Source: a virus
Lineage: Duplodnaviria; Caudoviricetes
DNA length: 24,645 nt
Virus record (IMG/VR): IMGVR_UViG_3300028557_000185
Location: 1-24,645 of that record
Direction: 5' to 3' (one strand)
The notes beneath the pieces are model-generated. The model saw nothing but the letters and a program-made list of their open reading frames with translations. It was not told the origin of the DNA and did not search any database. The number at the start of each line of letters is the position of its first letter. Within the stretch, counting starts at the first letter, position 1. Positions 1 through 20,281 of this stretch are shown here, in pieces. Made by a program: the position numbers and the translations under genes.

Positions 1-119
1 TTTTGCTCAATAAGCGGAATGGCTATGTATGCCGGAATCAATCCATCGTTCAAAGCGCTTTGCAATTGCTGGATGCTATAGCGCCCAGGGTTAGCCATGA
101 TCTGTTGTGCAATGCTCAT
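1..119 (-). CDS. 5' part of a hypothetical protein (probable internal virion/ejection protein), runs off the window
   Basis: ATG at 119-117 overlaps the upstream TGA (ATGA). Open frame to the window edge: MSIAQQIMANPGRYSIQQLQSALNDGLIPAYIAIPLIEQ. Confidence 0.7.
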   Translation of the reverse strand, partial: MSIAQQIMANPGRYSIQQLQSALNDGLIPAYIAIPLIEQ

Positions 120-2425
120 GCCCGGCCTCCCTTCATAGCGCGTCGTAGCGCCAACGCTTCAATCCCGCGCTCTTTAATCTTGCCGCCTTTCTTTTTCTGA
201 CTAGCGCCATATGCAATAGAACCAAGACCGGCTAACTGACCGCCAATACTAGGCGACGCAGAATACTGAGAAACAGTAGTCGTAGGCGTCATGTAGCCAC
301 GGATCAAACCACTGTATTGGGACATACGCTGGAACGGGTTCTCTTGCGCCATCGCGTAGTTCTGGACCGCTTGATTGATGATCTGCTGTTCGCGGTCTTG
401 CTGTGCTGCACCCATCTGTGACTGGAAGCCCATGCGCGACAAGTCAGCCGCCTGCTGTGCGGTACCAATGTTTGCCAAGTTTGTGCCTGCTTGACCTGCC
501 AATCCATATCCAGCCTGCGCACCAGTGACTCCCTGCAGTCCAACCTGAGCGCCCTGCATACCTTGAGCGGTGCCTTGAAGACCAACTCCGGCTCCTTGAA
601 GACCGAGCTGCCCGGCATTGATGGCTTGTCCGACCCCCTGAAGCCCGAGTCCAGCACCCTGCATGCTTTGCCCAGTACCAGCCAAAGCGGATTGAATGCC
701 TTGTTGTTCCAATTGTCCTGCGGCCAAAGCCCTATCAGCCGCTGATAATCCAAATTGGGCACCCTGCATACCCTGAGCGGTACCAGCCAACCCACGGTCA
801 GCACCAGACAGGTCAAGCTGCCCAGAGGCAAGCGCTCTATCAACGCCAGACAGTCCAACCTGAGCGCCCTGCATACCCTGAGCGGTGCCAGCAAGTTGAC
901 GATCGATGCCAGCCAATCCGGCTTGTGCACCCTGGATGCCTGTTTGTGCACCCTGGATACCCACACCATACAACTGGCCGGCTTGGCCAAGCCCTTGAAG
1001 GCCCATTCCAGCACCAGAGATACCGGCCTGTTGACCTGCAATAGCCTGTCCAATACCGGACAGACCCAGTTGACCACCTTGAAGGGCAGTACCAAGTCCC
1101 GATTGTGCTGCCTGCAATCCAGCCAAACCTTGGCCAGTACCGTATTGCATAGATTGTATGGCCTGGTTGTACGCCGACTGCAGCCCTTGCGCACGAATAG
1201 TATCAAGTTGTGTGTTAAGCGCGCGATCTGCTTCGGCTCTTTGAACGGCTTCCCGACCACCACCAAAAGCTCCGGCGCGGGTGGCTTGGGATTGAAGCTG
1301 AGTGCGCTGAATTGCAGCGTTTCGGCGTGCCGCTTCTTCTTGATTTTGAACCACCGACTCCATGTACGGAGACATGTAGCGCTGTACAGAAAAAGGATCT
1401 GTGGCTTGAGCTGCATAACCTTGACCAGTTAGTGCAGCCTGGCGAGCAAACTGCCGGGCTTCTTCGCCTACGTCACGGCCATAGTCTTGAGCAGCAAGTG
1501 CCATTTCGCCAATATTGGCCGCACGTCCACCATACCCCGCGCCCATGCCGCCATACATTTGTGCTTGATTGGCGAGAGCAGCAGCTTGCGCTCCGTAGCC
1601 GGCGCCTTGAGCGCCATATCCAGCACCCATTTCTCCGAATCGCTGACCACCTTGAATACCAAGTTGCTGCCCCATCATTCCCGACTGGAATCCAGCATTC
1701 CCATATCCATAGGCTGCCTGTTCCGCTTGCTGGGCACGCTCAGCCGCTCGCTGTGCAGCCTGAAGGCCAACCTGCTGCCCTAGCGCTCCAGCGCCCTGCC
1801 CCATCATGGCCGACTGCATCGCTATGTCGGTTGCTAGATTGGCCCGTGAGGAGGCTTGTTGTGCCCCCATTCTGCCAATATTTTCACCACGCATACCGGC
1901 CTCTTGACCTTGCGCTCCATACCCATATGATGCGTTTTGCGCTTGTGCTGCCTGCATTGCAGCTACATCAGCCGCGCTCATGCCGAGGTTTTGGCCTGCC
2001 ATGCCAGATTGGAACCCGGCGCCACCATACATATTGGCATCTTGAGCACTACGCAAACCACCCATACCCGCCAAGCCAGCAAGTTGAGTTGCGTCTTGAA
2101 ACTGCCCCGGCCGCTGCATACCAGCAGCCTCACGGAAAACAGCCTCTTGTTGCGGAGAAAACCCAGCTACGTAATCTTGAGCACGGGTGCTGTATGGGGT
2201 GTACGGCTTAACACCCGTGATGTTGCCTTCGCTATTAACGCTAAAAAACTCAGGAATAGCACCGGCAATAAGATTTAGAGCGGCAGGCTCAAGGGCCGCA
2301 TTAAGATTACTTGTGTAAGTAGTCGTGCTAGACGGCCCACCGCCGCCCCCTTCAAGGGTCATGCCATACTTGCTATGGGGTTGAAATGCCCGTTCGGGCA
2401 ACATGTCTAGATGGTCATATCTCAT
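116..2425 (-). CDS. Gly/Gln/Ala-rich putative internal virion (DNA ejection/pilot) protein, 769 aa
   Basis: Long ORF with ATGA overlaps at both ends. Short leader then GGGGG, G-x-Q-G heptad repeats, a predicted helical segment (SPYMESVV...AFGGGREAV) and a basic C-terminus. It follows a GNAT-like gene, as P22 gp7 follows gp14. Confidence 0.7.
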   Translation of the reverse strand: MRYDHLDMLPERAFQPHSKYGMTLEGGGGGPSSTTTYTSNLNAALEPAALNLIAGAIPEFFSVNSEGNITGVKPYTPYSTRAQDYVAGFSPQQEAVFREAAGMQRPGQFQDATQLAGLAGMGGLRSAQDANMYGGAGFQSGMAGQNLGMSAADVAAMQAAQAQNASYGYGAQGQEAGMRGENIGRMGAQQASSRANLATDIAMQSAMMGQGAGALGQQVGLQAAQRAAERAQQAEQAAYGYGNAGFQSGMMGQQLGIQGGQRFGEMGAGYGAQGAGYGAQAAALANQAQMYGGMGAGYGGRAANIGEMALAAQDYGRDVGEEARQFARQAALTGQGYAAQATDPFSVQRYMSPYMESVVQNQEEAARRNAAIQRTQLQSQATRAGAFGGGREAVQRAEADRALNTQLDTIRAQGLQSAYNQAIQSMQYGTGQGLAGLQAAQSGLGTALQGGQLGLSGIGQAIAGQQAGISGAGMGLQGLGQAGQLYGVGIQGAQTGIQGAQAGLAGIDRQLAGTAQGMQGAQVGLSGVDRALASGQLDLSGADRGLAGTAQGMQGAQFGLSAADRALAAGQLEQQGIQSALAGTGQSMQGAGLGLQGVGQAINAGQLGLQGAGVGLQGTAQGMQGAQVGLQGVTGAQAGYGLAGQAGTNLANIGTAQQAADLSRMGFQSQMGAAQQDREQQIINQAVQNYAMAQENPFQRMSQYSGLIRGYMTPTTTVSQYSASPSIGGQLAGLGSIAYGASQKKKGGKIKERGIEALALRRAMKGGRA
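527..895 (-). repeat. About 3.5 copies of a 105-nt (35-aa) coding repeat, LAGTAQGMQGAQxGL...
   Basis: ccctgcat recurs at 552, 657, 762 and 867, exactly 105 nt apart. Confidence 0.85.
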
Positions 2426-7348: not shown

Positions 7349-8098
7349 ATGGCAATTAACCAAGAACACACCATGTATGTCTACATCTGGAAGACCACTG
7401 ACGGAACTCCTTTCTATGTTGGTTTTACAAGAACCCGCCATCGCACCAACCCGCTGAATGCCGGCGGACGCAATTGGCTGTGTAAACAAAAGTTGGCCGA
7501 AGTTGGCGCTGAAAAAGTTATCATCGAACTGAGGCCTGTTACCTCCATCGAAGAAGGCACCGCACTTGAGTGCAAACTTATTGCGGAAATTGGCCGCATA
7601 CAGACCGGCACTGGGCCGCTGACCAACCTTACCTCTGGTGGAGACGGTGCTCATTCGCCAACTCCTAAACACCGAGAAATTCTGCGACAAGCAATGCTTG
7701 ATCCAAGGCACCCCGCGCGAAGCCCGGAGGCTAGGGCCAAAATTTCCAAACGCATGAAGTCACCTGATGTACAGGCGCTTTTCCTTGGTGACGCCAACCC
7801 TGCCAAGCGCCCAGAAGTGCGAGAGAAGATCAAAGCTAGGTGGGCTGACCCGGAGTACCGCGCAGCGATGTCTGCCAAAAAAGTTGGCAAACCCATACAT
7901 TCTGAAGAAGATAAAGAAGTCAGGCGCTTGAAGCTAATGGATCCAAACAACCCATTGCGCCAGTACCACAAAGTATTAAACACAGATCCAGAAATAGCTG
8001 CCAAGCGTGCTGCTACATTGCGGTTGCCAGAACAGCGCAAACGACAATCTGATGCAATGAAGGCGTATTGGGCTCGGAAGAAATTACAAACAACGTAG
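7349..8098 (+). CDS. GIY-YIG-family homing endonuclease with NUMOD3-like repeats
   Basis: N-terminal YVYIW...FYVG...R...E...LTN pattern. Repeated basic helices (SPEARAKISKRM, RPEVREKIKARW, HSEEDKEVRR). Alternative start at 7373. The only credible + strand gene. Confidence 0.75.
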   Translation: MAINQEHTMYVYIWKTTDGTPFYVGFTRTRHRTNPLNAGGRNWLCKQKLAEVGAEKVIIELRPVTSIEEGTALECKLIAEIGRIQTGTGPLTNLTSGGDGAHSPTPKHREILRQAMLDPRHPARSPEARAKISKRMKSPDVQALFLGDANPAKRPEVREKIKARWADPEYRAAMSAKKVGKPIHSEEDKEVRRLKLMDPNNPLRQYHKVLNTDPEIAAKRAATLRLPEQRKRQSDAMKAYWARKKLQTT

Positions 8099-9062: not shown

Positions 9063-9449
9063 TTATCTAACAAGAATCTCAGTTGTAATTTGTTGAATCC
9101 ATTTTGCATCCCAACTTGTTACCTTGCAATCAAAATGCTCCGGCGGTACAAAAAGTCTGTTCGTATCAAGATGCTTTGATTCAACAACAGTGTCCATCCA
9201 TACAACATAGTCAGCATCAAAAATCTCACGCATCTCTGGCAGAGGGCACACAAAGTCAGCAATCACATCTTTGTCACCAGCTAACTCTCTCATGCGTCTG
9301 GCCTGCCTCAGCCTGCCTTCAATGGTGAAATCCCAATCGTTTGCTTCTTGCCTTATTTGGTCTGCATTCAATCTTACAAACGGCAACGGTAAAGAATCAG
9401 CGAGTGTGGTCTTACCGGAACCCGGTAGGCCCATGACAAGCACTCTCAT
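9063..9449 (-). CDS. cysC: Short adenylylsulfate (APS) kinase-like P-loop kinase
   Basis: Walker A GLPGSGKT. NADQIR, DFTIEGRLRQARR, ADFVCP and FVPP parallel CysC motifs DGDNVR, GFSxxDRxENxRR, SFISP and YExP. The lid region appears to be missing. Confidence 0.6.
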   Translation of the reverse strand: MRVLVMGLPGSGKTTLADSLPLPFVRLNADQIRQEANDWDFTIEGRLRQARRMRELAGDKDVIADFVCPLPEMREIFDADYVVWMDTVVESKHLDTNRLFVPPEHFDCKVTSWDAKWIQQITTEILVR

Positions 9450-10264
9450 GCTTGTTCCCAGCGAACCTTAAACCCTTCCACTTCGGCGGGTTTGCGCCAG
9501 AACTCCTTGCCTGAGTACTTCTCCCACACCGACTTGGGCAGGATGGTGGGGCGCTCTTGCCACGACACTTGCTTGCGGACTGTGTGCAAGCTCTTCATGT
9601 TCAGCGCCTTGTCGTACACCTCGTTATCGTACTCGACGTTCATGTAATCGTGGTCGAAATACGGTTTGCCAATGAAGCCATACAACTCCCGCATCACGCT
9701 CTCGGGCTGCTTGCACAGCATCTCGTACTCCACCAGCATGATCATGTCGGGGTTTAAGAGCAGACCCTCTTCCAAGAAGTAGTAGGGCTTGACCACCTGA
9801 CCTTGCTTTTTCACATCCATCAGCGCATCGCACCGGGTGGTGACTGTTTGGCTAGATTCGTCATCCGTCAGGCTGGCGTTCCACAAAGTGTTCTTGGCCG
9901 CGATCCGCTCAAAGCTGTCCAGTATCCACGGCAAGTCCCGCACGCAGCAGATGATCTTGGTCTGTGGGTACAGGGTCTTCAGGAGAGATGTCTTGGATGT
10001 CCAGCCCCGGCTGGTGTCGAACACGATGGGCGGCTCAACAGCGTCGTAGTAGGCGTTGAACATGGCCCGCAGGATGCTCTTGCGGCGATCTTCATCAATC
10101 AGGTGGTTGCTCTCACTGCCCGTGATGACGTTGATGGTCGATGCCACCAAGCCTTGCACGGGCGAGGAGATGTCTGCGTAGAACTCAGGGTTCTGGCGCA
10201 AGATGGCCGACAGCAGGGTTGAGCCTGACCGTGGCAGTCCCGAGATGAAGAAGAACTCTTTCAT
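9446..10264 (-). CDS. PAPS-dependent sulfotransferase family protein
   Basis: 5'-PSB loop FISGLPRSGSTLL, 3'-PB motif KIICCVRD...ILDS, and VEYEMLCKQPE...FIG. ATGA-coupled at both ends. Confidence 0.85.
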   Translation of the reverse strand: MKEFFFISGLPRSGSTLLSAILRQNPEFYADISSPVQGLVASTINVITGSESNHLIDEDRRKSILRAMFNAYYDAVEPPIVFDTSRGWTSKTSLLKTLYPQTKIICCVRDLPWILDSFERIAAKNTLWNASLTDDESSQTVTTRCDALMDVKKQGQVVKPYYFLEEGLLLNPDMIMLVEYEMLCKQPESVMRELYGFIGKPYFDHDYMNVEYDNEVYDKALNMKSLHTVRKQVSWQERPTILPKSVWEKYSGKEFWRKPAEVEGFKVRWEQA

Positions 10265-10695
10265 GCCTGTGGTTCCATTGGCACCCAGTTGACTGTGGCC
10301 TCGTCCCACTGGTAACGCACGTTGCCACCGTTCATGATGGCATCAATAGGACGGGGTACTGGAGCGCCCCAGCTCATGGTGTCCAAGTAGCCGATCCACG
10401 ATGGGTACGGGCGTGTAGCTTCGTGCTCTGCAACACGGCGCTCGTTCCACTCGGTCTCGGTCAGGACTTCCAACACGCCGGGAATGTTTGTATCGGCGTC
10501 GTCATCACAGGTGCCGTAGTACTTGGGCGCACGCAGGTATGTGCCTGTGGAATCTGTTGGGACAGGCCATGTGGACTTGTCTTGCCAGATGATGCGCAAG
10601 CCTTTGACGGCTGGCATGGATGGCCCTGTGCGCTGTGGCTCGACAGTGCAAGGGATGCGGGTGTTGTGGTCAACTTCGGTTACGACGATGTGCAT
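10261..10695 (-). CDS. Hypothetical protein, possible tail-fibre accessory or chaperone
   Basis: 144 aa, overlaps the RT end by 16 nt. C-terminal PYPSW...W.APVPRP...YQWDEATVNW pattern is seen in small phage tail-associated proteins. Confidence 0.65.
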   Translation of the reverse strand: MHIVVTEVDHNTRIPCTVEPQRTGPSMPAVKGLRIIWQDKSTWPVPTDSTGTYLRAPKYYGTCDDDADTNIPGVLEVLTETEWNERRVAEHEATRPYPSWIGYLDTMSWGAPVPRPIDAIMNGGNVRYQWDEATVNWVPMEPQA

Positions 10696-11810
10696 TGTGA
10701 TGCTCCTAATCTGACAAGTTTTGTAAGCTGGCCATCAAACCAGCAGCCGGATTTACCAAGGTGTGTTGCTGCACGCTTGCGTTCTTTAAAAGCGTTAGCG
10801 TGCCGTAACATACCAAAATAACTGTTGACCGTTGCACGCAGAGGCTCAAATTCAGAATGCAGTGCAGTGCGCTTGTACATATTGGCAATCGTGGATCGGC
10901 GAATGTATTTACACCAAGGTTTAATAATATAGCCTACAAAGTTTATTCCCACCTCAACCCGATTAATTTCTTTTTTGTTAGGGTGAAACTTGACGGCAAG
11001 ATGTGTCTCGGCAAAAACCGACATTTTTTCATAAGCCTCGTTCAAATCGGTTCCGCTTCCGCCGATCACCACGATGTCATCGACATAACGGGCGTAATGC
11101 CGCAGCTTTAGCGTGTTCTTGGCGTACTGATCTAGCGCATCCAGATAGACGTTGGCAAAGAACTGACTGGACAGATTGCCAATCGGCAGACCAAAACCAG
11201 CTGTGGCGTTGAGCAAACTTTTGTGAGCGGGTACTTTAGAAAGTAACGACGCATCGCTCTTGATGTAAACATTTTCTTTTGGGTCTTTGTGCAAGATTGT
11301 CCGTGTCAAGGCCATCCACCACGGGTCGGTGATGTGCCGCGCCAGCATGGCGTCCAAAATTGACTTGTCAATAGACACAAAAAAATTTGCTACGTCAGCC
11401 TTTAAGAACCACGCCGGACGAGTGTGATTTTGAGTGGCCGACCGAATGAAATGTTGCACACGATTGGCTGCGCGGAGTGTGCCCTTTTCAGGGATGCAGG
11501 CGTAGCTGTCATGAATAAATCGCCGGTAAAAGTGGCCCGAGTAGCGGTTGTACAAAATGTGGTGTACAACCCTGTCCTTAAAATTTGCAGCCCAAACTTC
11601 ACGCGCCTTAGGTCTGGTGACGACAAACATGATGGATCGCCCCGGTTGGTAATTGCCAGCCACCAGCTCGTAGTACAAGTCCATCAGGTTGCGCTCAAGT
11701 TGACTTTCAAACTCAATTGCATTCCATGTATTGCGCTTTGCCTTTCGGCAGTCGTAATACGCCTGAAAAACTTCCGAAATTGACAGATCACACTGCATAC
11801 TTGGCTCCAT
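10680..11810 (-). CDS. DGR reverse transcriptase
   Basis: Motifs FKDRVVHH, DSYACIPEKGT, LKADVANFF, GLPIGNLSSQ (DGR-type SQ), YARYVDD and INFVGY. About 376 aa with no maturase or endonuclease domain. Alternative start at 11798. Confidence 0.95.
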   Translation of the reverse strand: MEPSMQCDLSISEVFQAYYDCRKAKRNTWNAIEFESQLERNLMDLYYELVAGNYQPGRSIMFVVTRPKAREVWAANFKDRVVHHILYNRYSGHFYRRFIHDSYACIPEKGTLRAANRVQHFIRSATQNHTRPAWFLKADVANFFVSIDKSILDAMLARHITDPWWMALTRTILHKDPKENVYIKSDASLLSKVPAHKSLLNATAGFGLPIGNLSSQFFANVYLDALDQYAKNTLKLRHYARYVDDIVVIGGSGTDLNEAYEKMSVFAETHLAVKFHPNKKEINRVEVGINFVGYIIKPWCKYIRRSTIANMYKRTALHSEFEPLRATVNSYFGMLRHANAFKERKRAATHLGKSGCWFDGQLTKLVRLGASQCTSS

Positions 11811-11812
11811 CG

Positions 11813-11939
11813 CCGAACTGCTCGAACCCGGTTTGAATTGTTCTTATTGTTGTTGTTCTGGTTGCCGTTATTGAAGTTCTGTTTCCATGCGTTCGTTGCA
11901 GAATTCTCAGTACTAGACCAGTAATTGTCAGCCGCAAAC
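11813..11939 (-). repeat. DGR template repeat (TR)
   Basis: 127-bp ungapped copy of 12465-12591. Contains 14 AAY codons in the VR frame and 46 adenines. Confidence 0.97.
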
Positions 11940-11998
11940 GCAAAGGCCATGCACTCACACAACGCAATGCAGATTTTTCCACACTGAGATTGGCTTGC

Positions 11999-12071
11999 GC
12001 CCTTTCGTTGGTTTCCCAACGGGCATGGCCCGAGATAGATGGGTCGCTAACGATCACCGTAATCATCGTTA
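11999..12071 (-). other. Stem-loops in the avd-TR spacer (5' part of the DGR RNA)
   Basis: CGTTGG-GAAA-CCAACG (12021-12006, GNRA loop, extendable by GCCC/GGGC) and TAACGAT-N10-ATCGTTA (12071-12048). Confidence 0.6.
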
Positions 12072-12428
12072 TTCCGCCCTCAAGTCTGGTGTATGTGTAA
12101 TCCATCCTTGTGCCTGACGCGCAAGCGAGTCAGTCAACAAGACGATTTCGGAAAAAACGGTAACATTAAGCAAACGCAAGTCTTTGGCAAGCCGAAGCAT
12201 TAATTCAATGACCTGCACTCTTTCAAGTATTTGCTGTAAGTGCTCTTTTCTTTGCTGGCGCAGTGTGTTGGCTTTATAAATAAACACAACCAATTCAATG
12301 CACTCATTTCTAATCTTGTCCCCTAGTGAGTATTTAAAATCACGGGGAAAATCTTTAGTTTTGCGCGTTACCATTTCAAGCAACTGGTAGGTTGTCTTGT
12401 ATATTGGTAAGTGTTTGTACTGTGCCAT
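12069..12428 (-). CDS. avd: DGR accessory variability determinant (four-helix bundle)
   Basis: 119 aa, basic and helical: LPIY...FPRDFKYSLGDKI...LRLAKDL...QAQGW. Located between VR and TR. Confidence 0.9.
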   Translation of the reverse strand: MAQYKHLPIYKTTYQLLEMVTRKTKDFPRDFKYSLGDKIRNECIELVVFIYKANTLRQQRKEHLQQILERVQVIELMLRLAKDLRLLNVTVFSEIVLLTDSLARQAQGWITHTPDLRAE

Positions 12429-12449
12429 GCAAAGAAAAGAATTAAAGAA

Positions 12450-13094
12450 TTAAACGGGCAATCTCCGAACTGCTCGAACCCGGGTCGAATAGTCCTTATT
12501 GTCGTAGTTCTGGTTGCCGCCACCGAAGAACTGTCTCCATGCGCCCGTCGCAGAAGGCTCAGTACTAGACCAGTAACTGCCAGCCGCAAACTCTTCTGCA
12601 CCACCAGTTACAAACGCCGCCGCCGAAGTTTGCGCAGGTGTTCCCGAAGTGTAACTACTATCCCTTCTGGGCACAGCGTTGGCGTTAACGCCTGCGCCGG
12701 TGTCATTGCCCGCTGTAGTGGGTTTTAGGTTGTAATAACACACTTCAAGTTCGTTTTTTGCGGGCATGTACCAGTCAGTAAAGCCGCCAATGGTCAAGCC
12801 TTTACAGAACTGCGCCGCTGGATGGCTTGCATTGTTCATGTTAGCGCTATTGGTTGGGCCGTCAATAACCGAAGATGTTCCCGCTGTGGACGTATTTGTG
12901 GTTTTCCATTGTTTAGATGAATTTTCGCCAGAAGATTTTGGGGCAACAACTAAATAAAAATCTGCAACCCCATTGCCAGCGGTTGAAATCTGACCTGCGT
13001 AATACCCGCCCTCATACGCAGAACCAATCGCACCCGGCGGTGGCGGGCCAAACGACCTCTGGTTCATAAATACAGCTTGAGATACGCCGCTCAT
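12450..13094 (-). CDS. DGR target: receptor-binding protein with C-type-lectin-like (DUF1566/Lcl-like) C-terminal domain
   Basis: ATGA-coupled to the tail fibre gene. Motifs DWYMPAKNEL, YWSSTE, AW and VRAVRR. VR lies at the 3' end. Confidence 0.9.
   Translation of the reverse strand: MSGVSQAVFMNQRSFGPPPPGAIGSAYEGGYYAGQISTAGNGVADFYLVVAPKSSGENSSKQWKTTNTSTAGTSSVIDGPTNSANMNNASHPAAQFCKGLTIGGFTDWYMPAKNELEVCYYNLKPTTAGNDTGAGVNANAVPRRDSSYTSGTPAQTSAAAFVTGGAEEFAAGSYWSSTEPSATGAWRQFFGGGNQNYDNKDYSTRVRAVRRLPV
12465..12591 (-). repeat. DGR variable repeat (VR)
   Basis: 20 differences from TR, all A to N on the coding strand (13 G, 4 T, 3 C). Confidence 0.97.
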
Positions 13095-14425
13095 GTCAAA
13101 CCACTCCCTGAGATAATCCATTCAGTGCTAGTAACTTTAATGCAAGTTGCCGAACCGTTAGCCGCAAGAGTTCGGCTACCAGTAGTACCAGCAGGTGACA
13201 ATCGCATTGTGTCGGTGGTAATTGCAATAGTTACAACACCAGCGCCGTTTTGATTGATAAACGTAATAGCAGTCCCAATAGGGAAAGCCACGCTACTGTT
13301 AGCAGGAATAGTAAACGTGCGTGCGGTCGTATCAGCAGATGGGTGCAGGATATGCTTACCGGAATCCGCTAGAACAAGCGTGTATGCAGCAGATTGAGAG
13401 TTCTGCGGGATATTCCTAAACCCAAGAGTGCAAGTCTCGTCTGGAAGCGTACATGTGTAGTCAGCAGCAAGGCTATCAGGGGCTTTTAGCGCAACATAGT
13501 TACTGCCGTTGTCGGTATCTTCTGGCAAACGCAGTTCTGCACCAGCACTGCTATTTCCAATAACAGCAAGGGGGGTTGCCAAAGATGCACCGGATACAAA
13601 ACTCAGCGCACCAGAGCCATTGGTTTGCAGAACCTGACCATTAGTCCCATCCGCCGACGGTAGGGTGAAAGTCAGATCGCTTGCTAATGTATTTGGCGCC
13701 TTCAGTGCCACATAGTTGGACCCGTTATCAGTATCTTCAGGCAAGCGGAGTTCTGCGCCAGCGGTGGCATTCCCTACAACAGCCAATGGAGTTGCAAGTG
13801 AGGATCCCGATACAAAACTCAGAACGCCACTGCCGTTTGTTTGAAGCACCTGTCCGTTTGTGCCATCTGCATTTGGAAGGGTAAATGTGACATTTCCCGC
13901 GAGTGTGTCTGCCGCTTTCAACGCAACGTAGTTGCTGCCATTGTCGGTGTCTTCCGGCAAACGAATTTCAGCGCCGGCGGTAGAGTTACCCGTTACAGCC
14001 AAGGGGGAAGCAAAAAACGTAGAAGAGACCGTTACAAAGTCAGAACCATTCCAAGCTACAAGAGCTTTAGTACCGGCCGGGATTGTCACACCCGTAGTGG
14101 GACCGGCGCCTCGAATGACAATTGACTGGCTTCCGCCCGTTGCATTAATAACAACGTATGCCTTGCTTTGGGCTGGCGCGGTGATGTTCCGCGTTGTTGA
14201 TCCAGTAGCAGTCCACAGAATAACTGCACTGCGAGCCTGGTTTGCCGCACCATTGGTGGTAGACAATGTTACGTCTGTATCCGCACTGAGAGTCGTCGTG
14301 CCAGCTACGGCAGTGTCAAGCAACGATGTAATCGCGGTGTTAACTTCTGTACCCCAAGTGCCCGATAGATCCCCTGTAGTGGGAAGGGCTAGGCCCAGAA
14401 GGGTGGTGTAATTGGTTGTAGCCAT
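13091..14425 (-). CDS. Tail fibre protein
   Basis: N-terminal anchor-like LGLALPTTG...GTWG, internal 72-aa repeats with TLP.ADGTNGQVLQTNGSG.LSF, and C-terminal beta domain ending WIISG. Confidence 0.85.
   Translation of the reverse strand: MATTNYTTLLGLALPTTGDLSGTWGTEVNTAITSLLDTAVAGTTTLSADTDVTLSTTNGAANQARSAVILWTATGSTTRNITAPAQSKAYVVINATGGSQSIVIRGAGPTTGVTIPAGTKALVAWNGSDFVTVSSTFFASPLAVTGNSTAGAEIRLPEDTDNGSNYVALKAADTLAGNVTFTLPNADGTNGQVLQTNGSGVLSFVSGSSLATPLAVVGNATAGAELRLPEDTDNGSNYVALKAPNTLASDLTFTLPSADGTNGQVLQTNGSGALSFVSGASLATPLAVIGNSSAGAELRLPEDTDNGSNYVALKAPDSLAADYTCTLPDETCTLGFRNIPQNSQSAAYTLVLADSGKHILHPSADTTARTFTIPANSSVAFPIGTAITFINQNGAGVVTIAITTDTMRLSPAGTTGSRTLAANGSATCIKVTSTEWIISGSGLT
13433..14011 (-). 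repeat. About 2.7 tandem 216-nt (72-aa) repeats in the tail fibre
   Basis: RLPEDTDNGSNYVALKA occurs three times. gatacaaaactcag occurs at 13593 and 13809, 216 nt apart. Confidence 0.9.
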
Positions 14426-19231: not shown

Positions 19232-19512
19232 TAGTCGCGGTACCCACCGCCACGCTTCTTGTATTGCATGGCTAGCATTTGACTTTTACGCGCTGACCAC
19301 TGCCCCGGTGCGCCGCCCTTGCCGCCAGCCTTAATGCTGTTAAACAAAGACTTACGCATACCGGGTTTGGTGTAATTGCCTGCTTCATTAACTTTACTTA
19401 CACCACCTTCTTTGTATTGAGTAACTTCGTCGGGGTTGTCTTTGCGACGAATAGTCTTAGCCTTCGGCATCTTTGAAGGATTGATACAGCCCATACCCCG
19501 ACTCGGTCTCAA
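19231..19512 (-). CDS. Small basic hypothetical protein
   Basis: TTG start overlapping the HNH stop (TTGA). MRPSRGMG...YTKP...PGQWSARKSQ. Confidence 0.75.
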   Translation of the reverse strand: MRPSRGMGCINPSKMPKAKTIRRKDNPDEVTQYKEGGVSKVNEAGNYTKPGMRKSLFNSIKAGGKGGAPGQWSARKSQMLAMQYKKRGGGYRD

Positions 19513-19970
19513 ACTACACCCCCACAACGAACGCCATTAACTATCCTACTTATATGCGGTTGTTTTACTCCATACATACGCGCTAAAGCAGATTGACTAT
19601 AAGAAGAGCTAAAGTATAAGTCTTTAATCTCTTTAATTTGCGCATCAGCAAGTTTAGACATACCGTTAGATTGGCCTATAAAACGTTTGTACCCGCTTCG
19701 CCCTTTTTTGACTCTATCCGCTACATTATCAGCGTTAGTGCCTAAAAATAAGTGGTCAGGATTGCAGCATTTCGGGTTATCACATGTATGTAAAACGTGT
19801 AGTGACTCAGAAAGACTAGAAATTTTTCCAGATAACAAAGCAGCTACGCGATGCGCATGTTTGGGTTTGCCATCTACATTAAACCACCCATATCCATTGT
19901 TAAGCGCACCCGTCCATTCCCAGCACCCTTCTTTAGTGCTGTCTACTTTGACCCAGAACCGCTCTTTCAT
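19509..19970 (-). CDS. HNH homing endonuclease with C-terminal HTH
   Basis: CWEWTG...GYG...AHR...VLHTCDNPKCCNPDHL..GT..DN and SQSALARMYGVKQPHISRI. ATGA-coupled start. AT-rich. Confidence 0.9.
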   Translation of the reverse strand: MKERFWVKVDSTKEGCWEWTGALNNGYGWFNVDGKPKHAHRVAALLSGKISSLSESLHVLHTCDNPKCCNPDHLFLGTNADNVADRVKKGRSGYKRFIGQSNGMSKLADAQIKEIKDLYFSSSYSQSALARMYGVKQPHISRIVNGVRCGGVV

Positions 19971-20281
19971 ACCATCTTCCCACGGGTCTTGCCCTTGATG
20001 CAGCAACCATCAGCACGTGCAGAGGCAGATCCGCCTTTAGCGTACTTTTTGACCTTGCCGCCTTTCTTCATGCCATCTTCAGAAGGAGCTGCAGGAAGAG
20101 CCTTTTTGCGATTTTTGGTTGCCTGATATGCATCTTGCATTTCTTTGGCTTCTTCTTTGGTCGTTCCCATGTACTGCTCTGCACGAAGCTCTTTCTCGCT
20201 TTTATCGCGCATACGCTTGTACGGCTCAACAACATATTCTTTTGCCATGCGGCTAAGAAAACTATCTTTAGTAGTTGGCAT
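19967..20281 (-). CDS. Small Lys-rich hypothetical protein
   Basis: SD AAGGAG. Motifs MKKGG, YAKGG and ADGCCIKGKT. Confidence 0.8.
   Translation of the reverse strand: MPTTKDSFLSRMAKEYVVEPYKRMRDKSEKELRAEQYMGTTKEEAKEMQDAYQATKNRKKALPAAPSEDGMKKGGKVKKYAKGGSASARADGCCIKGKTRGKMV

Follow-up and report, generated by a model that had tools for sequence, protein, structure and literature searches.

Does a phage that can hypermutate one of its own proteins keep this ability, or is it held only for a time? The question is raised by a 24,645-nucleotide stretch of phage DNA (Duplodnaviria; Caudoviricetes; IMG/VR record IMGVR_UViG_3300028557_000185, positions 1-24,645, one strand), referred to here in its full length as the window. 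It carries a diversity-generating retroelement (DGR), in which a target gene with a variable repeat (VR) is followed by the accessory gene avd, a template repeat (TR) and a reverse transcriptase (RT) gene (Table 1). We consider it probable that this intact DGR rewrote the C-terminal, lectin-fold tip of a likely fibre-docked protein, and that cassette deletion has happened again and again among relatives of the phage, with the expected effect of freezing the tip. The evidence comes from the window itself, from other viral loci and contigs (L-numbers) and from metagenome runs (X-numbers), the latter compared through assembled contigs.

The element is a genuine, intact DGR with avd, RT, TR and VR. 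Its repeats align without gaps over 127 nt, and the mismatches, 20/20, are confined to adenines of the TR (13 A>G, 4 A>T and 3 A>C), a distribution with a chance probability of 5.6e-11 (hypergeometric). Thirteen codon changes are non-synonymous and two are synonymous (GCA>GCG, TCA>TCG). The 14 AAY codons alone allow 15^14 = 2.9e16 variants, and all variable codons together about 10^23.7 proteins; two of the variable codons, AAA and AAG, are able to mutate to stop. A first-pass annotation made from the letters alone had given the same repeat coordinates, mismatch, codon and 15^14 figures and had called a complete DGR with intact RT and avd frames. All of this was reproduced: both frames are open, and the target-avd-TR-RT order, the adenine-only pair, RT and avd were all found. 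By sequence, the RT belongs to the DGR class. Its closest solved structure is BPP-1 bRT (8ub7, E 3.8e-46; the runner-up has E 3.5e-6), and it retains the bRT residues K29, F66, R74, D138, I181, G182, Q187, D215 and D216, which are template, nucleotide and catalytic contacts (10.1101/2023.10.23.563531). Identity is 35.6% to the BPP-1 RT and 52% to the RT of Pseudomonas phage Cruim01, and an adenine-biased TR/VR pair is present at 73 of the 80 nearest viral RT loci. The avd product matches PF22296 (48.5 bits, passing the cut-off of 40) and phrog_3206 (E 3e-29); against NCBIfam NF033474 it scores 50.8 bits, below the cut-off of 80. A second target of the TR was found neither in the window nor in the further 19.4 kb by which a longer contig, identical to the window, extends it.

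Table 1. Features of the DGR locus, in window coordinates.
Feature	Position	Strand	Remarks
RT of the DGR	10680-11810	-	376 aa; motifs IGNLSSQ, YVDD
TR	11813-11939	-	46 A, 14 AAY codons; end 2 nt before RT start codon
Structured helper RNA between avd and TR	11921-12092	-	about 130 nt non-coding; covariation
avd accessory gene	12069-12428	-	119 aa, pI 9.5
Periodic motif	12436-12454	-	8-bp-periodic, T-rich; consensus TTYRRTHM repeated; over and past target stop
DGR target gene	12450-13094	-	214 aa; short N-terminal MSG leader and one Lcl_C/DUF1566 C-type-lectin-fold domain
VR	12465-12591	-	3' part of target gene; changed residues within 172-204 of target
Invariant 19-nt 3' tail common to VR and TR	12465-12483	-	last mismatch at 12484
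Fibre-like protein	13091-14425	-	444 aa; 72-aa (216-nt) repeats and C-terminal XD-like domain; likely target carrier
Stretch deleted in co-occurring strain	10761-12270		joint 10760/12263 between 8-nt repeats 10761-10768 and 12263-12270
Conserved gene behind cassette	10261-10695	-	144 aa; AGGAG (Shine-Dalgarno-like) 10703-10707 inside RT tail

Loss of this cassette recurs among relatives. From 168 viral loci with a target homologue we examined the best 80; eight lacked the downstream gene and 15 were duplicates, which left 57 distinct loci. Four of them are intact (one is the window phage), seven are scarred, 44 are cassette-free, hereafter clean, and two are of other kinds. The scars, four recognized by rule and three by eye (L108, L113, L139), retain the periodic motif behind VR, the start of avd and the ribosome-binding site of the next gene. 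TR-VR recombination was rejected as the route of loss, as it does not fit with scars that all keep the avd start. At L089 and L159, 24/25 and 16/19 VR mismatches still lie at adenines of the TR of intact L009; L122, L108, L101 and L139 each depart from the best TR at 5-12 non-adenine sites, and for L113 no alignment was obtained. On a tree of two downstream proteins (47 rows; loci without either gene, including L009, L089, L108 and L122, were left out), five scars need four changes, all forced by well-supported branches.

Deletions also occur side by side with the intact form. The joint 10760/12263, seen in X13, marks the loss of TR and helper RNA together with half of avd and most of RT. A diverged strain in X13 has a second joint (10802/12376), and the third junction lies at 12397 and agrees with the assembled contig L161. 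In X13 each of these junctions is found alongside the intact form, and all three loose ends are seen again in X14. Contig depth in X13 is 4-9 for TR and RT, 44 for the joint 10760/12263 and 58 for VR alleles; it serves as a hint and gives no copy number or share. A pattern scan of metagenomes returned three loci only, the 10760/12263 deletion form not among them. The mainly open literature searched held no description of recurrent DGR deletion in phage populations, and neither did the available sections of PMC8867640 and PMC8144416. Loss of the DGR core is in print for bacteria, namely for Treponema denticola (PMC4891356) and Thiohalocapsa (PMC10907252). Similar to the scars described here, targets outlast RT and TR in these degenerate elements; unlike them, they reside on bacterial chromosomes, whereas the recurrent losses seen here affect the tail module of a phage, and single water samples contain both the intact and the deleted form. 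The window's DGR itself is one of tens of thousands and of an already known kind, and the presence of intact and deleted cassettes in one water sample offers a direct test of whether phages keep hypermutation only temporarily.

Which protein would be frozen by such a deletion? The target belongs to Lcl_C (Pfam PF07603, E 2e-11), and its model (pLDDT 94, from a 102-row alignment) has its best solved fold match in the C-terminal domain of Legionella Lcl (8q4e; Z 13.0, rmsd 3.1, 126 aligned), followed by other C-type-lectin folds, which bears out the lectin target proposed earlier. No significant likeness to Mtd was obtained (BLASTP best E 1.1), and Mtd is absent among the fold matches listed, which does not rule Mtd out; sequence searches of solved structures gave nothing significant for target or fibre tip. 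Given the Lcl_C lectin fold and the lack of Mtd likeness, we place the target nearer the DUF1566/CLec2 category. Its start codon overlaps the stop of the gene for the fibre-like protein, which has no Pfam, PHROG or atlas family. The last 112 aa of that protein (model pLDDT 79) match CBA120 TSP4-N (Foldseek E 7e-4, TMq 0.65), and the C-terminal domain resembles T4 gp9/gp10 and tailspike XD domains; in TSP4, such domains bind other tailspikes (PMC8825819). Among distinct fibre-tip domains, the window's included, 23/24 have the next gene within a few bases and with an M[ST]G start. Because this leader so regularly follows the XD-like domain, the target is likely docked on the fibre tip, as judged from gene order and folds. 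The earlier placement of a lectin at the fibre tip holds for the fold and for the position directly behind a fibre-like gene; the coupling itself is suggested by gene order and folds.

Alternatively, the target could be no virion adhesin at all: a small lectin-fold protein acting by itself in some other function, of the sort that related DGR targets encoded in early operons are suspected to have. The upstream gene carries no Pfam or PHROG name, and the closest cultured homologues of the target are unnamed Pseudomonas phage proteins (28-37% identity), both of which would be compatible with this idea. We nevertheless think it quite unlikely, given that the target sits in a structural operon with tail-like genes on one side and lysis genes on the other, overlaps the fibre stop and bears the type of leader that accompanies XD-like domains. 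Many clean relatives (L085-L159) have two or three tandem target paralogues with differing N-terminal leaders, and these paralogues may be an alternative way of varying receptor binding. The conserved 144-aa gene, to which PHROG and atlas searches assigned no family, directly follows the target in cassette-free relatives. Atlas searches on the fibre and the 144-aa gene returned PF07880 in 13% of one cluster, which is a lead only.

When did the DGR rewrite its target? The first-pass annotation had taken the lack of non-adenine drift as a sign of recent or ongoing retrohoming. This claim was too strong: a pure A-to-N pattern is found in 65% of DGRs (Wu 2018, PMC5758913) and in 12/16 nearest relatives, and as the majority state it does not date retrohoming; in addition, the VR is unchanged in every assembly of the phage's own population. 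What can be stated is that retrohoming from the window's TR took place repeatedly in the past. X13 and X14 hold two further VR alleles, and the existence of a second allele altered at the adenines of the same TR implies repeated events. Each allele contig has 27 differences, of which 23 and 25 are listed; in the first allele, 23/23 listed differences from the window fall on adenines of the window TR (P 7e-13). X13 contigs covering 10767-11866 and 11837-12292 carry the TR without any change. X15 differs by one letter over 12507-12660, at low depth. The target gene varies by strain exchange too, as seen from common allelic blocks upstream of VR at 12625-12743 (14 differences/119 nt in X8 and X9) and 12890-13184 (40 differences/292 nt in X13).

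Several observations weigh against the explanation that we favour. Detection of the X13 joints relied on 80% likeness and on flanks of just 30 and 36 letters, which is an artefact-prone range, and it may be that a DGR was never present at the 44 clean loci. The window VR is letter-identical in 4/4 other assemblies of the phage (L001/L082, L002/L081, L083, L162) and unchanged in contigs of X1, X8, X9 and X12 (X12 contig depth 103), with the bubble at 12625-12743, just upstream of this invariant VR, being common in X8, X9 and X12; such identical assemblies and runs may be the source itself or stem from one campaign, and contigs drop rare variants. In the other of the two X13/X14 alleles, 22/25 listed differences are on TR adenines and three are off, and there is a 3-nt insertion among the AAY codons. 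Finally, the MSG-leader targets of L108, L128 and L135 are without a detected fibre-tip domain upstream. In-frame indels at AAC runs are known in DGRs (PMC5758913). The VR of L009 (L009:1247-1375) likewise shows a 3-nt insertion against its own TR.

The uniform VR also bears on the possibility that the DGR is constitutively active now, with a cloud of rare VR variants beneath one dominant allele. We regard this as close to an even call, falling slightly on the side of doubt. All DGR parts are intact, VR alleles differ in X13 and X14, and 50-75% of DGRs look recently active, with purifying selection able to mask activity (PMC8144416). However, one VR recurs letter for letter in all of the assemblies and runs named above, and the pure-adenine pattern provides no date.

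The clean loci lead to another explanation, in which the cassette is mainly a mobile module, recently gained by swapping into the site between the conserved end of the target and the 144-aa gene. The majority of clean loci would then never have had it, and loss would be plain decay with no adaptive meaning. It deserves serious consideration, although we lean against it. The sheer share of clean loci (44/57) fits with recent gain, as does clean L160, which has about 30 nt at the target end in common with the window. Clean VRs are, moreover, 12-38% diverged from any TR at non-adenine sites (31/44 with alignment), and the intact rows do not form one group on the tree. Yet the scars prove loss in at least four lineages. 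Furthermore, clean L109 is sister to scar L139, has sequence on the junction side in common with it and keeps part of the motif, which argues that some clean loci are eroded scars. Gain and loss of the cassette are not mutually exclusive. Behind the target stop, L139 and L109 resemble an earlier and a later state of a single scar that is being worn down until the spacer seems clean.

Retention of VR and motif in the scars could also mean that the DGR is a shared, disposable mutator: avd-TR-RT would be deleted, VR and landing mark kept, and a minority of intact sisters would go on rewriting tips in trans when they infect the same cell. The BPP-1 element is functional when avd-TR-brt is provided in trans (PMC3240598), 8/8 scars have the motif, and the VR alleles of X13 and X14 are on much deeper contigs than TR and RT (X13: 58 vs 4-9). 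These points notwithstanding, we judge rewriting in trans to be improbable. Older scars gather 5-12 non-adenine drift sites, the alleles are unphased with the junctions, and the motif is kept in scars because the breaks fall inside avd.

How is the VR recognized for homing? The GC-rich hairpin with a GRNA loop behind VR, proposed as a general DGR need (PMC3240598) and present in 34% of DGRs (PMC5758913), is absent in the window (z 0.6, 0.1, -0.6), and a GC stem of at least 7 after VR occurs in 0/16 nearest DGRs vs 17/45 more distant ones. The invariant tail of the repeats is, by analogy (PMC5758913), likely the start of the initiation of mutagenic homing sequences (IMH/IMH*). Behind it lies the periodic motif, likely a hairpin-free landing mark, a candidate role suggested by its observed association with VRs. 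Scored with a matrix trained on 43 distant VRs and a threshold at the 99th percentile of 612 other gene ends, the motif was above threshold in 16/16 near VRs, 47/47 remote VRs and 8/8 scars, and in controls at 2/61 TR ends, 1/43 cassette-free target ends, 0/33 paralogue ends, 65/1260 shuffles and 7/612 other gene ends; the counts are not independent, as the loci are related. A stricter first regex, with two motif units, found only 45/67 proximal and 16/53 remote VRs. The motif might be a mere AT-rich translation or transcription signal for avd with no homing role, considering that in the window it directly precedes the avd start, which is without AGGAG, and that 65/1260 shuffles pass the threshold with an AT-rich motif of this kind. 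This reading is unlikely: the motif is present at 47/47 remote VRs, which do not adjoin avd, compared to 2/61 TR ends and 7/612 other gene ends. We found no description of the motif in the mainly open literature searched; either it or recurrent deletion might appear in the supplementary TR-VR alignments of Wu 2018 and the RT motif file of Weinberg 2017. Given that most DGRs are without the BPP-1 hairpin, this compact single-target element offers a candidate substitute signal that is directly mutable.

A second feature of the cassette is the spacer between avd and TR, which measures 123-170 nt in 19/19 loci. In the RNA of this gap, 30/37 pairs change on both sides and 95% of cells are paired (16 sequences), a level reached by 0/500 shuffles and compared to 31-47% in slid controls. 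The RNA model recovers the held-out L009, L016, L047 and L056 and has no match to BPP-1, L030 or L037. Folding of the TR region as a single sequence was no better than shuffles (z -0.13), so the structure is seen by covariation only. No Rfam RT family was detected in the avd-TR gap at E<=1, and a search of 10600-12700 gave one chance microRNA match. Of 13 loci, only L030 and L037 have Rfam RT-15 (RF03018), which there fills the corresponding gap, and further RT motifs have been speculated to act in DGRs (PMC5737381). The gap between TR and RT is 2 nt in the window and -16 to 33 nt in 19 relatives. A BPP-1-like Sp spacer of ~140 nt between TR and RT is absent; an Sp-like element inside the RT coding sequence was not searched for. 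Since the helper RNA lies on the opposite side of TR from that in the solved BPP-1 complex, priming would need another arrangement or would draw on RNA from within the RT gene. Promoter and terminator scans did no better than chance.

These parts can be joined into one mechanism, modelled on BPP-1. RT and Avd would likely bind an RNA made up of the structured avd-TR spacer and TR, and its reverse transcription would be error-prone opposite adenines. The cDNA would then replace VR, and the target would likely be marked by the 19-nt invariant tail and the periodic motif, which stand in for a hairpin. Through the MSG leader at its N-terminus, the target would probably attach to the fibre's XD-like last domain, and it would bind a host surface receptor. 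Deletions between short repeats remove avd-TR-RT and leave the target and the motif in place, as well as the next gene's ribosome-binding site; this would freeze the tip in its last state, and further erosion likely makes scars look cassette-free. Cassette loss may also benefit the phage.

Compared to known systems, the window combines traits of several. The first-pass annotation had equated it with the BPP-1 arrangement (mtd-avd-TR-brt; NC_005357), and the two agree in gene order, adenine-specific TR/VR, RT key residues and a target in the tail module. The likeness ends there: BPP-1 has Mtd as its target and a GC hairpin, whereas the window has an Lcl_C/DUF1566 target and no hairpin, and the gaps are 144 nt (TR-RT) and 0 (avd-TR) in BPP-1 vs 2 nt and about 130 nt in the window. 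Similar to category 'd'/CLec2 DGRs with DUF1566 targets, such as Legionella LdtA (PMC5758913), the window has a short target with a C-terminal VR, a likeness to CLec2 that is one of description; about half of category 'd' targets are single-domain DUF1566-type proteins (PMC5758913). LdtA, in contrast, is a bacterial surface lipoprotein, whereas the window target has an MSG leader and is encoded behind a phage fibre gene. The RT-15 phage DGRs (L030, L037) share an avd-TR gap RNA with a long hairpin and then a three-arm junction, as well as the periodic motif after VR. However, the window RNA is shorter, neither RNA model finds the other's members, and many RT-15-type DGRs have several targets and a hairpin, whereas the window has one target and no hairpin.

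The host of the cassette is a tailed phage, of which the window covers the structural half: capsid, adaptor, tail-like genes, lysozyme and spanin (Pfam, PHROG). Its capsid protein is 73% identical to that of MinM2/Pag-Yong1 and 64% to that of pelagiphage HTVC023P, and metagenome runs with at least 0.68 of the window's words are lake water; no RNA data set was listed as containing the window. An identical 43.9-kb contig of the same phage adds portal, terminase, helicase, primase and a ParB-like gene. Temperate phages form a DGR class marked by an integrase/lysogeny module (PMC6199706), and lytic phages with a DGR are already in print (10.1101/2020.10.09.334284). A tyrosine integrase (PF00589) was not found in 4/4 records of the phage, all incomplete (61-78% complete); the ParB-like gene is present. 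The longer contig also has a GroES-like gene between portal and head genes (L173:17979-18398, plus strand).

Further genes of the window deserve mention. Two are homing-endonuclease-like (7349-8098, plus strand; 19509-20006, minus strand), the first being on the opposite strand inside the structural operon. After the tail-tip module, 9063-10309 (minus strand) encodes a small P-loop kinase, weakly matching APS kinase, and a sulfotransferase (PF13469, E 4e-18), which puts sulfation genes next to an Lcl-like fold. The sulfotransferase is found again behind the 144-aa gene in most target loci. At 116-2425 (minus strand), a 769-aa Gly/Ala/Gln-rich protein with 105-nt repeats and no family match is probably an ejection protein.

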